From a virus (taxonomy: Duplodnaviria > Heunggongvirae > Uroviricota > Caudoviricetes), in IMG/VR virus record IMGVR_UViG_2541047770_000002: a stretch of 27,225 nucleotides of DNA. The stretch is one strand, 5' to 3'. Within the stretch, counting starts at the first letter, position 1. Each line of letters starts with the position of its first letter. Below, one piece after another: positions 17,485 through 26,378 of this stretch. A model generated the notes under the pieces. That model was not told the origin of the DNA and did not search any database. It saw only the letters and a program-made list of their open reading frames with translations. Position numbers and translations under genes: made by a program.

Positions 17485-18252
17485 ATGAAAATGCAGACAT
17501 TACCCATCGTGCCGTGGATTGGTGGCAAACGCCGCCTTGCAAAACACATTCTGCCGCTGTTTCCGGCGCATGAATGTTATGTGGAGCCGTTTTGTGGGGC
17601 AGCAGCGCTCTATTTTCTTAAGACACCCGGCAAGATCGAAGTCATCAATGATATCAACGGTGAACTGGTGAATCTGTACCGGGTGGTAAAGCATCACCTG
17701 GAAGAATTTGTCCGCCAGTTCAAATGGGCGCTGGTCAGCCGTCAGATCTACAAATGGCTGCAGATCACCCCGGAAGAAACACTGACGGATATCCAGCGTG
17801 CGGCACGGTTTTACTACCTTCAGAAGCAGGCGTTTGGCGGCAAGGTGGCAGAGCACAGCTTCGGTACCTCCACCACATCCCCGCCACGCTTCAACCTGCT
17901 GCGTATTGAAGAAGAACTGTCAGCGGCACACCTGCGGCTTTCCAGAACAGTCATAGAACACATGGACTGGCAACAGTGCATTGAGCGTTATGATCGTCCG
18001 CACACGCTGTTCTACTGCGACCCACCGTACCTGGGTACGGAAGGCTATGGTGTGGATTTTCCTGAAGGGAACTACTCGCGGCTGGCAGAGCTGGCCCGGT
18101 GCATCAGAGGAAAGATGATTATATCGGTCAACGATATCCCGGAAATGCGGCAGGTTTTTAACGGTCTGAACATTCACTGTGTGAAGGTCAACTACAGTCT
18201 TGCAGGAAAGGGAACACTACGGCGCGAACTTATTGTAAGTAATTTAGAGTAG
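17485..18252 (+). CDS. dam: DNA adenine (N6) methyltransferase, Dam family
   Basis: Translation aligns by eye with E. coli Dam motifs: PWIGGKRRL (vs KWAGGK), EPFCGAAALYF (vs EPFVGAGSVF), DINGELVNLY (vs DINSDLISLY), FYCDPPY catalytic motif. Start ATG 17485 (MKMQTLPIV...); track start 17395 is upstream in frame. Confidence 0.85.
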   Translation: MKMQTLPIVPWIGGKRRLAKHILPLFPAHECYVEPFCGAAALYFLKTPGKIEVINDINGELVNLYRVVKHHLEEFVRQFKWALVSRQIYKWLQITPEETLTDIQRAARFYYLQKQAFGGKVAEHSFGTSTTSPPRFNLLRIEEELSAAHLRLSRTVIEHMDWQQCIERYDRPHTLFYCDPPYLGTEGYGVDFPEGNYSRLAELARCIRGKMIISVNDIPEMRQVFNGLNIHCVKVNYSLAGKGTLRRELIVSNLE

Positions 18253-19717: not shown

Positions 19718-20134
19718 TTAACCCACATTTTTTAACCGCTCAATCGTTGCGGATAATTCCTTCAGTTGTTTTTCCATCTCGATCACTCGCTGTTTTTCCG
19801 CAGCGCCTCGCAGAAGATCGTTACGAACCTCGGGGTCTAGCTGCTTTAAAAGCTCAAGCATAGTAAGGTCAGCTTGGCTAAACTGCACTTGCGTCGGAGT
19901 TACGTCTACTTCTTTTGATAAACCTTGTTTTCTACCTGTTAGCAACCAATCTAAAGAAACCCCCTTTTCTTCTGCGATGTTTATGCAAATTGCATAAGGC
20001 ACAGAATCACGCTTCCTCCAACTTGCAAGTGTCTGCCTATTGACGTTAAGCGCTCTTGCCAACTCACTATCATTCTCTGCTTGGAATAGTGACATTAACC
20101 GGGAAAGCACAGCGTTAACATCTTTGTTATTCAT
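19718..20134 (-). CDS. Prophage repressor, CI-type helix-turn-helix (no peptidase domain)
   Basis: 138 aa from ATG 20134 (track start 20149 is GTG); HTH segment LARALNVNRQTLASWRKRDSVPYAICINIAEEKGVSLDWLLTG typical of phage CI-type repressor N-terminal domains; divergent from the ner-A-B early operon. Confidence 0.7.
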   Translation of the reverse strand: MNNKDVNAVLSRLMSLFQAENDSELARALNVNRQTLASWRKRDSVPYAICINIAEEKGVSLDWLLTGRKQGLSKEVDVTPTQVQFSQADLTMLELLKQLDPEVRNDLLRGAAEKQRVIEMEKQLKELSATIERLKNVG

Positions 20135-20149
20135 TTTGCGTAATTCCAC

Positions 20150-20222
20150 TTGATTTATTTATTTTGAATAAGTACATTTATTCATATTGAGTACATGATA
20201 ACCCAACTGGAACTATCCGCAT
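20150..20222. promoter_or_regulatory. Repressor / early-operon operator-promoter region
   Basis: 20-bp palindrome TGAATAA-GTACAT-TTATTCA at 20165..20184 (perfect 7-bp arms); second GTACAT copy at 20191..20196; lies between divergent repressor and ner-like starts. Confidence 0.5.
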
Positions 20223-20447
20223 ATGAATAAACAACAAGTTCGGGCACGACTAGTTGAACGAGGCAGTAGCTTGCGCCAGTTCGCGCTTAACGCAGGCTAT
20301 GAGCCACGAACAGTCACACAGGCAGTCAGTCGCTGGGCTGGTAAAAGTGAACTACCACGTGGTCGTTTGACTTATCGGATTTTGCGAGATCTATCGGTTG
20401 CAATAGGTAAAGAAGTTACCCCCGGTATCCTTAAGGAGGTGTCATGA
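20223..20447 (+). CDS. ner: Ner-like DNA-binding protein (early-operon regulator)
   Basis: 74 aa; segment LRQFALNAGYEPRTVTQAVSRWAGKSELP resembles Mu Ner (LSALSRQFGYAPTTLANALERHWPKGEQ, from memory); first gene of operon ending in transposase and B. Confidence 0.65.
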   Translation: MNKQQVRARLVERGSSLRQFALNAGYEPRTVTQAVSRWAGKSELPRGRLTYRILRDLSVAIGKEVTPGILKEVS

Positions 20448-20752
20448 ATAAACCAAATACATCAAGCGCAGGTACCCGTATTTTGCGTGTTCTTAAGGCG
20501 TTACGTGGCCACGCTCTGAACGGTATCTCCAACGGTGAACTGGCGGCAGCACTGCACGAGTCACCAGCAAACATTAATCGGGCACTCAACACCCTCATTG
20601 AAGAAGGGCTGGCCCTGAAACTGGAGAATGGACGTTTTGCACCGGGCATCCAGTTACTGCAGATCGCCATGGCTCACAGTAACGAGATGGCACGAGCGCA
20701 GGATCGTATTAACGAAATCAACCAACGTGTCATTTCAGGTAGTCGTTTATAA
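20444..20752 (+). CDS. Small winged-helix DNA-binding protein (IclR-like HTH)
   Basis: 102 aa; ATG overlaps ner stop (ATGA), AAGGAGG upstream; pattern RILRVLKAL...ISNGELAAALHESPANINRALNTLIEEGLA resembles IclR-type N-terminal wHTH. Confidence 0.45.
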   Translation: MNKPNTSSAGTRILRVLKALRGHALNGISNGELAAALHESPANINRALNTLIEEGLALKLENGRFAPGIQLLQIAMAHSNEMARAQDRINEINQRVISGSRL

Positions 20753-24624: not shown

Positions 24625-24643
24625 TAATGAAATCCACCACAGG

Positions 24644-24810
24644 TGCGTATTTTCATGAAAGGAGATCACTCAATAACTTCCATCGAGATCGGGTAATAAC
24701 ATTTGAACAGATCGCTGAATAACATCGATGGAGATCACTTTTGACTCATTTTGTTATTCAGTGATCTCCATCAATGTTATTGGAACTTCACAGGTGTGTT
24801 GATCTGTATC
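24644..24810. repeat. Left terminal inverted repeat region of IS with multiple internal repeats
   Basis: GGAGATC-containing motifs at 24661, 24685, 24730 and inverted at 24763; six GATC sites within about 160 bp. Confidence 0.6.
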
Positions 24811-24836
24811 TTTTGCCATTCCGGTAAAGGATACCT

Positions 24837-26378
24837 ATGCCAACAGTTCCAATTTCTATGAGAAAACTTAAAGAAATTCTTAGGCTTAAATACGGTGTTG
24901 GACTCAGCCATCGACAAATTGGTCGTAGTCTTGCAATCTCCCCTTCCGTTGTATCCAGATATGCTAATCGGGCGGCTCAACTTGGCATAAAGCAGTGGCC
25001 CTTACCTACAGGATGGGATGATACAAAACTAAAACATGCGTTCCTTCAGACCCAGGTTAAGATGAAGAAGCACTCTCTGCCTGACTGGGCTACAGTACAC
25101 CGGGAACTGCGTAATAAATGCGTGACGCTGCAGCTACTCTGGGAAGAATACTGTGAGCGTAATCCAGGCGGTTTTTACAGCTATAACCATTACTGCCGGA
25201 TGTACCGTGAATGGCTCAAAACCACTTCACCATCAATGCGTCAGGTACATAAAGCTGGCGAAAAACTTTTCGTTGATTACTGTGGACCTACCGTTGGCGT
25301 TACCGACCCTGAGACCGGAGAAATAAAAACTGCTCAGGTCATCGTAGCTGTTCTCGGGGCATCAAGTTACACATGGGCAGAGGCCACCTGGTCTCAGCAG
25401 CTTGAAGACTGGGTGATGAGTCATGTTCGCTGCTTCCAGTGGTTGGGTGGCGTTCCTGAACTTGTTGTTCCGGACAATCTGAAAAGCGCCACATCCAGGG
25501 CATGTAAGTATGATCCTGACGTTAACCCTACCTACCAGCAGATGCTTGAGCATTATAATGTCGCAGTTTTGCCTGCGCGGCCACGTAAACCGAAAGATAA
25601 AGCCAAAGCTGAAGTTGGCGTTCAGGTTGTTGAACGCTGGATCATGGCCCGAATCAGGCATGAGATCTTCTACAGCCTTGCATCGCTTAATCAGCGCATT
25701 CGGGAGTTGCTGGAAAGACTGAATAACAAAATAATGCAGAAGTTGGGTTATTCACGTGCAGAACTCTTCATCCAGCTTGATAAACCCGCACTGAAGCCTC
25801 TTCCTGAAGCCAGTTACAGTTACACCCTGGTGAAGAAAGTCAGAGTTCATGCCGATTACCACGTGGAAATCGACAAACATTACTACTCGGTTCCATGTTC
25901 GCTGTTAGGCCAGCAACTGGAAGCATGGATCTCCGGAGAACTGGTAAGACTCTTCAATCAGGGGCAGGAGGTTGCTGTGCACCCGCGCAAGCGTACTTAT
26001 GGCTACAGTACCCGCAACGAGCACATGCCTGAAGCTCATCGACAGCATGCCACCTGGACGCCAGAGCGTCTTCTGGAATGGGCGGGGCACATAGGCAGTG
26101 AAACTCATAGTTATGTGCTTCATATACTGAACTCTCGTCCACATCCGGAACAAAGCTATCGCTTCTGCCTTGGACTCCTGAACCTTCATAAAAAATACAG
26201 TAAAGCCAGACTTAATGCAGCATGTGCAAGAGCTCTGAAAACAAAGGTATGGCGTCTGTCAGGTATTAAATCGATCCTGGAAAAAGGTCTGGATAAACAA
26301 CCTGTTCAGGATCCAAAACCAGATCTGTTATCCACGATGGAACACGAAAACGTACGCGGCAGTGAGTATTACCACTGA
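24837..26378 (+). CDS. istA: IS21-family transposase IstA
   Basis: 513 aa; N-terminal HTH (GLSHRQIGRSLAISPSVVSRY), DDE-type core; followed 11 nt later by istB. Confidence 0.85.
   Translation: MPTVPISMRKLKEILRLKYGVGLSHRQIGRSLAISPSVVSRYANRAAQLGIKQWPLPTGWDDTKLKHAFLQTQVKMKKHSLPDWATVHRELRNKCVTLQLLWEEYCERNPGGFYSYNHYCRMYREWLKTTSPSMRQVHKAGEKLFVDYCGPTVGVTDPETGEIKTAQVIVAVLGASSYTWAEATWSQQLEDWVMSHVRCFQWLGGVPELVVPDNLKSATSRACKYDPDVNPTYQQMLEHYNVAVLPARPRKPKDKAKAEVGVQVVERWIMARIRHEIFYSLASLNQRIRELLERLNNKIMQKLGYSRAELFIQLDKPALKPLPEASYSYTLVKKVRVHADYHVEIDKHYYSVPCSLLGQQLEAWISGELVRLFNQGQEVAVHPRKRTYGYSTRNEHMPEAHRQHATWTPERLLEWAGHIGSETHSYVLHILNSRPHPEQSYRFCLGLLNLHKKYSKARLNAACARALKTKVWRLSGIKSILEKGLDKQPVQDPKPDLLSTMEHENVRGSEYYH

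Follow-up and report, generated by a model that had tools for sequence, protein, structure and literature searches.

Putative repressor operators in the divergent control region of a BcepMu/B3-like prophage of Escherichia coli

RESULTS

Gene content of the immunity region

The DNA analyzed here, referred to as the window, is a stretch of 27,225 nucleotides (IMG/VR record IMGVR_UViG_2541047770_000002). This 27-kb window was identical to part of several E. coli chromosomes and was located wholly within a Mu-like myovirus prophage (BcepMu/B3-like transposable) of this species. Tail, head and lysis genes were encoded on the minus strand in the left of the window, and the immunity and early region was on the right. 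The nearest deposited phages were Klebsiella phage KP12 and Escherichia phages Phi06_2974 B and PhiKM (classified Bcepmuvirus); Pseudomonas phage B3 and related phages were matched more weakly. Parts of the region were matched in 633 of 5426 complete genomes and the exact immunity type in 23; BcepMu/B3-like transposable prophages are common in E. coli. The following genes were identified in the immunity and early region.

19718 to 20134, minus strand: repressor gene, 138 aa; Pfam PF07022 (Phage_CI_repr), 64.5 bits against a cutoff of 22
20223 to 20447, plus strand: first early gene, 74-aa Ner-like protein; phrog_8503 at 1e-34; BcepMu gp16 family
20444 to 20752, plus strand: second early gene, 102-aa winged-helix (IclR-type HTH) regulator; Pfam HTH_IclR, 27.1 bits against a cutoff of 22; phrog_1368 at 4e-44
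Further early genes: a DUF3102 protein, an rve-domain transposase and an AAA+ (ExeA-type) B protein

The repressor and Ner-like genes were separated by a gap of 88 bp (20135 to 20222; 30% G+C), lying between ATG codons at 20134 (minus strand) and 20223 (plus strand). The Ner-like ORF (20223 to 20447) is left unannotated by RefSeq at the identical E. coli locus (NZ_CP095086.1), and the gene caller missed it in one relative, L075; the frame was intact in both, and the gene is annotated in other genomes. A 79-codon ORF was present antisense to the winged-helix gene (20431 to 20670, minus strand). Further to the right, the gene for Gam, a host-nuclease inhibitor (24924 to 25454), carries a pseudogene flag and an internal stop in the RefSeq annotation of the identical locus, and for this reason the prophage may be partly defective. 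A cluster of long inverted repeats was detected at 24654 to 24781, inside a small ORF downstream of the transposase B gene (RefSeq CDS 24627-24896). This cluster had three related copies, the best pair being AATAACATCGATGGAGATCACT and AGTGATCTCCATCAATGTTATT (22 nt, 95% complementary); each copy contained GATC, and the prophage encodes a Dam methylase (17485 to 18252).

Properties of the repressor and the Ner-like protein

The PF07022 match of the repressor spanned residues 8 to 69. A profile of the repressor family matched PDB entry 2FJR (186 CI), the best PDB sequence match, with an E value of 3.7e-6 over residues 8 to 82 only. An AF2 model contained a five-helix N-terminal HTH domain, a disordered linker (residues ~70 to 82) and a long C-terminal helix (residues 101 to 137). 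A homologue of the 186 CI C-terminal domain, which forms a 14-mer wheel, was not found in the repressor, the PDB match ending at residue 82. Pfam detected no peptidase domain (S24), and there was no DNA-binding domain of the Mu Repc/MuA type, all matches being to HTH families of the CI/XRE type. None of the deposited phages carried this repressor, the best match being 40% identical.

The AF2 model of the 74-aa protein had four helices (pLDDT 94), and its best Foldseek matches in PDB were EnrR structures 7f9i and 7f9h, with a probability of 0.93 to 0.97 and a TM score of 0.60 to 0.65 but an E value of 0.14. The protein scored below the cutoffs of Pfam HTH_35 (Mu Ner/Nlp; 16.7 bits against 25, E = 0.007) and TIGR04111 (BcepMu gp16; 29.1 bits against 34), and Mu Ner was not matched in PDB sequence searches with either the single sequence or a profile. 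Homologues in the databases are named "BcepMu gp16 family." The protein is distantly Ner-like; because both cutoffs were missed, this term is fair for its position and general fold and does not denote established membership of the Ner family.

The 20-bp palindrome and its conservation

The initial annotation had described a near-perfect 20-bp palindrome between the divergent repressor and ner-like genes and, with a second GTACAT core 19 bp away, had proposed it as the likely set of binding sites controlling the lysogeny/lytic decision. The palindrome TGAATAAGTACATTTATTCA was confirmed at 20165 to 20184, inside the 88-bp gap, and reads TGAATAA-GTACAT-TTATTCA. Its 7-bp arms were perfectly complementary and its centre, GTACAT, was asymmetric, so that 8 of 10 pairs were symmetric over the 20-mer. 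The second GTACAT was located at 20191 to 20196, 19 bp from the first when measured from start to start; GTACAT occurred 10 times in the window. The palindrome was the sole perfect 7+7 inverted repeat in the gap. Perfect inverted repeats of at least 7 bp with a spacer of 0 to 10 bp were, however, obtained in 6.6% of dinucleotide and 8.5% of mononucleotide shuffles of the gap, and significance of the palindrome by itself was rejected. The palindrome pattern with up to three mismatches had three matches in the window against 0.71 expected. Because shuffles so often equalled the palindrome, its weight rests on conservation in related loci.

A search with the repressor yielded a graded series of homologues, from 93% down to ~45% identity, and 16 further loci of the same repressor type were compared. 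These were from Escherichia, Citrobacter, Salmonella, Klebsiella, Serratia, Pectobacterium, Limnobaculum, Pseudocitrobacter and Pseudomonas, and the recognition helix VNRQTL(A/G)SW was present in all 16. An alignment of the gap contained a series of invariant or near-invariant blocks: the TTG of a -35-like TTGA, then TTAtT, aATAA-gtac-TTAttC (the palindrome), TG..TACA...TaaC, and GGAaC before the early ATG. Within the palindrome, the inner bases of the arms, ATAA and TTAT, were invariant in the 17 loci, and variation was observed at the outer two arm positions, which were broken in 4 to 5 of 13 distinct sequences, and in the 6-bp centre. There were no compensatory changes between the arms in the 13 distinct sequences, and the covariation score was below the shuffled mean. 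Variants of the first GTACAT among the loci were GTACAC, GTGCAC, GTACGA and ATAGGC. The two AGTACAT copies were also considered as a conserved direct repeat, for example as Ner sites, and this was rejected because the first copy varied independently of the second.

Predicted promoters and the block shared across immunity types

E. coli MS20655 (L003), a relative with a different repressor HTH, has a rightward promoter match, TTGACA-16-TACAAT (11/12), which could be aligned base for base with TTGATT-17-TACATT in the window. The window's own promoter had a match of 8/12, which is below the scan threshold, and was unreported by the scan. On the basis of this alignment and of conservation, TTGATT-17-TACATT is predicted to be Pe, the early promoter, from which transcription would start near 20185. 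The elements of this part of the gap are as follows.

20150 to 20155, plus strand: predicted Pe -35 box TTGATT; TTG invariant in 17 loci
20173 to 20178, plus strand: predicted Pe -10 box TACATT, 17 bp after TTGATT; TAnnnT conserved in 17 loci; includes most of the first GTACAT
20189 to 20213: immunity-independent block GAGTACATGATAACCCAACTGGAAC; conserved in KP12 and MS20655 despite their different repressor HTH domains
20200 to 20195, minus strand: TATCAT, candidate -10 box of a leftward repressor promoter

With Pe assigned to TTGATT-17-TACATT, the first GTACAT would essentially be its -10 box. No match to the IHF consensus was seen beside the -35 box on inspection by eye. The shared block at 20189 to 20213 contained the second GTACAT and the conserved GGAAC before the Ner-like ATG, and may hold a site of the Ner-like or the winged-helix protein. 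The second GTACAT core of the initial annotation was thus present at the distance given for it, but it lacked TGAATAA/TTATTCA arms and was part of a block kept by heteroimmune phages.

The minus-strand TATCAT element conforms to TAnnnT, with T, A and the final T invariant in the 17 loci, and is a candidate for the -10 box of a leftward repressor promoter that would face Pe. A conserved -35 box for this candidate was found neither in the promoter scan nor in the 17-locus alignment, and the leftward promoter stays tentative for this reason. If real, it would have three of the operators described below in its transcribed leader, an awkward arrangement for a maintenance promoter. Phage Fc02, of the B3 family, has a repc-ner gap of 106 bp in which the predicted promoters pC2 and pE overlap; its lysogenic repressor transcript originates from a distal promoter, pC1, lies antisense to the early genes and carries coding sequences for small exclusion proteins (PMC9936078). 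By analogy with Fc02, distal transcription of the repressor may apply here too.

A 17-bp dyad at four fixed positions

In a locus-by-locus listing of inverted repeats, TTATT-N7-AATAA was found twice, over the repressor start codon and in the spacer left of the palindrome. The full recurring unit was TTATTCA-N3-TGAATAA. With up to two mismatches, the 17-mer TTATTCANNNTGAATAA had only four matches in the 27 kb of the window (starting at 19981, 20127, 20155 and 20178), all within 214 bp, and these were designated O_D, O_A, O_B and O_C.

19981 to 19997: O_D, TTATGCAAATTGCATAA; perfect dyad within the repressor gene, codons 46 to 51
20127 to 20143: O_A, TTATTCATTTTGCGTAA; over the repressor ATG; right half degenerate here and perfect in some relatives
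20155 to 20171: O_B, TTATTTATTTTGAATAA; fills the spacer of predicted Pe; differs from the consensus at one position; its right half forms the left arm of the palindrome
20178 to 20194: O_C, TTATTCATATTGAGTAC; from the last base of the predicted Pe -10 box to about +10; left half consensus, right half degenerate; two mismatches

When up to three mismatches were permitted, there were seven matches against 0.57 expected, and seven were reached in none of 100 shuffles; the three additional 3-mismatch matches (15949, 18318 and 26852) were judged to be chance and were rejected as extra sites. The centre of O_B was 23 bp from that of O_C, with O_A 28 bp to the left of O_B and O_D 146 bp to the left of O_A. 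Among distinct D, A and B sequences the half-site consensus was TTAT[T/G][C/T][A/G], positions 1 to 3 being TTA in 42/42 and position 4 being T in 39/42.

A search for the 17-mer in 3 kb from each of 14 enteric relatives, whose repressors were 48 to 93% identical, detected matches at -153, -7, +21 to +23 and +44 to +46 from the repressor ATG, with six stray 3-mismatch matches elsewhere. O_D was at -153 in 14/14 of these relatives. O_B was at +21 to +23 in all of them and took the perfect form TTATTCATTTTGAATAA in L006 and L077. The TGAATAA-N6-TTATTCA arrangement, by comparison, occurred once per locus, at the junction of O_B and O_C.

Several features limit how individual sites can be read. 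In the window, O_A has two mismatches in one half, and its left half, like the whole of O_D, is also under coding constraint. The gap is very AT-rich, and TTATT/AATAA is partly typical of AT-rich promoter DNA. The first T of the half-site, invariant elsewhere, is lost in the right half of O_C (TGAGTAC), and this half is uncertain because it is also conserved in heteroimmune phages; the second GTACAT overlaps both this half and the candidate TATCAT element, inside the shared block. O_C may therefore amount to no more than one half-site, and the N6 pairing would then gain in plausibility. Because the 17-mer is the repeated unit, the palindrome is most likely the junction of two operators, composed of the O_B right half, the Pe -10 core and the O_C left half. 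O_B and O_C flank the predicted Pe core, whose position follows from the 11/12 promoter of the relative and from conservation.

The heptamer TGAATAA/TTATTCA occurred 14 times in the window against ~2.6 expected. The repressor, Ner-like and winged-helix genes all begin with ATGAATAA (20127 to 20134, 20223 to 20230 and 20444 to 20451), and of these gene-start heptamers only that of the repressor was conserved within an operator, and most same-immunity relatives have ATGAACAAA at the Ner-like start. For this reason TGAATAA at the Ner-like start codon (20224 to 20230) was rejected as a fifth half-site. An 11-nt perfect inverted repeat, TTTATTCATAT and ATATGAATAAA, connects the O_C left half (20177 to 20187) to the Ner-like start codon (20221 to 20231). 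It was full-length only in the window, L074 and L075, and it too was rejected as part of an operator, since other same-immunity loci have ATGAACAAA at that start. In a transcript begun upstream of 20177, this repeat could occlude the Ner-like start codon.

Constraint on the intragenic site O_D

O_D lies at the codons for PYAICI (repressor codons 46 to 51), the start of helix 4, directly after the recognition helix. Over these six codons the summed synonymous diversity in the 17 loci was 0.09, compared to an average of ~0.38 per codon elsewhere, and a permutation test for any 6-codon run as low gave P = 5e-5. Among the frozen codons are CCT, TCA and ATA, which the phage's own large genes use as minor codons. 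Codons 1 to 3 of the repressor, which form the left half of O_A, had zero synonymous variation. The frozen synonymous sites at codons 46 to 51, on minor codons, and at codons 1 to 3 indicated selection on the DNA itself.

Exchange of the dyads with the repressor HTH

The dyads were compared with the regulators of heteroimmune relatives. In MS20655, the Ner-like protein was identical to that of the window at 73 of 74 residues and the winged-helix protein was 97% identical. The C-terminal 81 aa of the repressor were 78% identical, whereas residues 1 to 57 were unrelated (XRE-type HTH). The DNA from O_D to the O_C left half was replaced, up to the base before GAGTACAT, and the 17-mer dyad was not found in 7 kb of MS20655. 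This locus has a dyad of its own in the promoter spacer, and its repressor gene repeats 11 bases of that dyad at about -160. KP12 exhibited the same pattern with its own motifs. Both relatives combine an unrelated HTH and different dyads with other regulators that are 97 to 99% identical. As the dyads were absent where the HTH had been swapped, even though the Ner-like and winged-helix proteins were near-identical, the dyads travel with the repressor HTH and not with those proteins.

A smaller change was observed in L012, L013 and L017, in which VNRSTLGNW replaces VNRQTLASW. At the A and B positions these loci had dyads that kept the 7-3-7 form but differed in sequence, being TTTCCCAAAATTGGAAA and TCCCATAATGGGA in L012. 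Upstream of position 2501 in the same three loci, the A and B dyads were of the TTTCCCA type, compared to C and D half-sites of the TTACACA/TTACACG type. This mix suggested that two half-site classes may exist in one phage. The HTH of 186 CI binds two distinct recognition sequences. The boundaries of the swap (window 19900-20190 against L003 2700-2980) were near the SLDWLLTG codons and just before GAGTACAT. These comparisons suggest that the HTH coding part, the intragenic operator, the promoter spacer and the operators of the gap are exchanged together as a single immunity module.

DISCUSSION

The same dyad was repeated several times in the immunity region, and the sites changed together with the DNA-binding domain of the repressor in heteroimmune relatives (MS20655, KP12 and the L012 group). 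It is very probable, on this comparative evidence, that the region is the operator set of this prophage's repressor, placed over the early promoter in the manner of the lambda, 186 and Mu immunity regions. We consider it probable that this set consists of the 17-bp dyads flanking the Pe -10 box, with the palindrome as a two-site junction. A repressor dimer would bind the 17-bp dyads TTATTCA-N3-TGAATAA, and repressor occupying O_B and O_C would deny RNA polymerase access to Pe. With Pe blocked, the transposase operon would be silent, as would the genes for the Ner-like protein and the second regulator. O_A and O_D would probably add cooperativity or looping and autoregulation. The 23-bp distance between O_B and O_C leaves the -10 hexamer between the right half of the former and the left half of the latter, and these two half-sites, opposed in this way, form the palindrome. 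The proposal that a binding-site set of the switch lies here thus held in that the arms are in the divergent control region, have inner bases invariant in 17 loci and flank the predicted -10 box, and its link to the repressor is consistent with the absence of the TTATTCA-N3-TGAATAA set from a relative with a different repressor HTH.

The earlier reading of the 20-bp palindrome as the binding unit has to be weighed against this arrangement. It would have one dimer bound to TGAATAA-N6-TTATTCA over the -10 box, the other TTATTCA-like motifs being accessory or incidental. The palindrome is the only perfect 7+7 repeat in the gap and is centred on the predicted -10 box, and the inner five bases of both arms are near-invariant in enteric relatives. 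Moreover, the right half of O_C is poor, so that its left half may pair with the right half of O_B, and the flexible linker of the repressor could permit variable half-site spacing (13 bp as well as 10 bp). The recurring unit is nevertheless the N3 17-mer, present at four fixed places, whereas the N6 form occurs once per locus and leaves O_D and O_A without a partner; L012 keeps N3-type dyads at A and B with no N6-type pair around the -10 box, and the outer arm positions are the ones that break in the distinct sequences. Half-site centres are separated by 13 bp in the N6 form and by 10 bp in the 17-mer, and one rigid dimer could not use both. We regard a single 20-bp operator as unlikely. Binding of the motifs by a protein other than the repressor, whether the Ner-like protein, the winged-helix early protein or an AT-preferring host nucleoid protein, is in our view very unlikely. 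The near-identity of the Ner-like (99%) and winged-helix (97%) proteins in MS20655, which is without the dyad set, and the co-variation of the dyads with the repressor HTH argue against either early protein, and a role of the Ner-like protein at the arms is not supported. A sequence-tolerant nucleoid protein would leave unexplained both the invariant half-site positions 1 to 3 and the synonymous freezing at O_D. In Mu, Ner does bind in the c-ner gap, which counts in favour of a binding protein other than the repressor, as does the 30% G+C of the DNA. EnrR, the best fold match of the Ner-like protein, is ~45% identical to Mu Ner and binds AT-rich DNA (PMC9023278).

Two further explanations dispense with a binding protein. 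The palindrome could have arisen by chance from AT-rich promoter DNA and coding constraint (Met-Asn-Lys starts and the PYSICI motif) and have no operator function. About 7% of gap shuffles give an equal inverted repeat, and the ATGAATAA starts of three genes demonstrate that coding can make the heptamer. Chance is extremely unlikely to account for a four-site pattern in 14 divergent loci with almost no matches elsewhere, for synonymous sites frozen on minor codons, and for replacement of the whole set together with the HTH domain. An RNA hairpin in the repressor mRNA leader or the early mRNA has a negligible probability and was rejected because the stem is weak and compensatory changes are lacking. 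The 7-bp stem folded by the minus-strand RNA is worth -4.1 kcal/mol and the 31-nt piece has a z-score of -2.6, but all pairs of the stem are A-U save one G-C. The 66-nt leader had a z-score of only -1.6, the early 5' region had no excess structure, and the absence of compensatory changes in 13 distinct sequences, with a covariation score below the shuffled mean, also counts against the hairpin.

On the preferred reading of repressor-bound 17-bp dyads, the role of O_D is a separate question, and the putative intragenic operator in the HTH coding sequence is the most interesting detail of the region. A tentative possibility, which we hold with some doubt, is a switch of four sites, one of them (O_D) embedded in the coding sequence of the repressor's own DNA-binding domain, in which the repressor would loop or wrap the start of its own gene in the style of 186 CI, coupling repression of the lytic promoter with autoregulation. 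O_D and O_A are separated by 146 bp, or about 14 turns of the helix. Heteroimmune relatives seem to have the same layout built from other sequences. If such a switch exists, the HTH coding sequence and the operator embedded in it would be exchanged, and would co-evolve, as one piece of DNA.

A description of operators in BcepMu/B3-like phages was not found in the literature, where only predicted promoters are available for B3 and Fc02; the work on Fc02 and B3 defined no operators (PMC9936078). An operator consensus and map would allow the immunity groups of these prophages to be predicted from sequence and would supply direct targets for tests of induction control.

The region resembles several known switches in part. 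In lambda, the 17-bp operators OR1, OR2 and OR3 are situated between repressor and lytic genes that diverge, and in heteroimmune relatives the HTH and operators are swapped as a module. The dyads described here are likewise 17 bp long, are 23 to 28 bp apart from centre to centre, overlap the core of the predicted lytic promoter and are swapped with the HTH. Unlike lambda, the repressor has no S24 peptidase domain, one putative operator is intragenic, and the candidate repressor promoter faces the lytic promoter, whereas those of lambda are back to back. Phage 186 CI binds three proximal operators at pR, two helical turns apart, and the distal sites FL and FR (PMC3675496). The likeness to 186 comprises a homologous N-terminal HTH, several close putative dyad operators over the predicted lytic promoter and a distal site. 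It ends at residue 82 of the repressor, beyond which there is no similarity and a long C-terminal helix is predicted in place of the wheel domain of 186 CI; the distal site is intragenic and 146 bp away, compared to ~300 bp in 186, and the operator sequences are unrelated as far as could be told.

In Mu, PcM and Pe govern the lysis-lysogeny decision (PMC3820752). The prophage shares with Mu its transposable nature and a repressor gene divergent from a small Ner-like first early gene that is followed by transposase genes. It differs in having a repressor HTH of the 186 CI type and not of the type of Repc, which binds O1 to O3 in Mu, a gap of 88 bp, and a Ner-like protein that falls under the Pfam Ner-family cutoff. 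The DUF3102 gene matches B3 and Fc22, and a short gap with opposed, overlapping predicted promoters before a ner-like gene is also a feature of the B3 family (PMC9936078), but the repressor is of another type, and tblastn with the repressor of the window gave no match to B3 or Fc02. Lactococcal phage TP901-1 has a different host and is a different type of phage. It also has a non-cleavable HTH repressor with a helical oligomerisation domain, and sites OR and OL with a distal OD in a neighbouring gene (PMC7250872). Overall, these comparisons indicated an ordinary kind of phage immunity switch, which leaves the general understanding of phage switches unchanged and to which the region adds a compact example with a putative intragenic distal operator.
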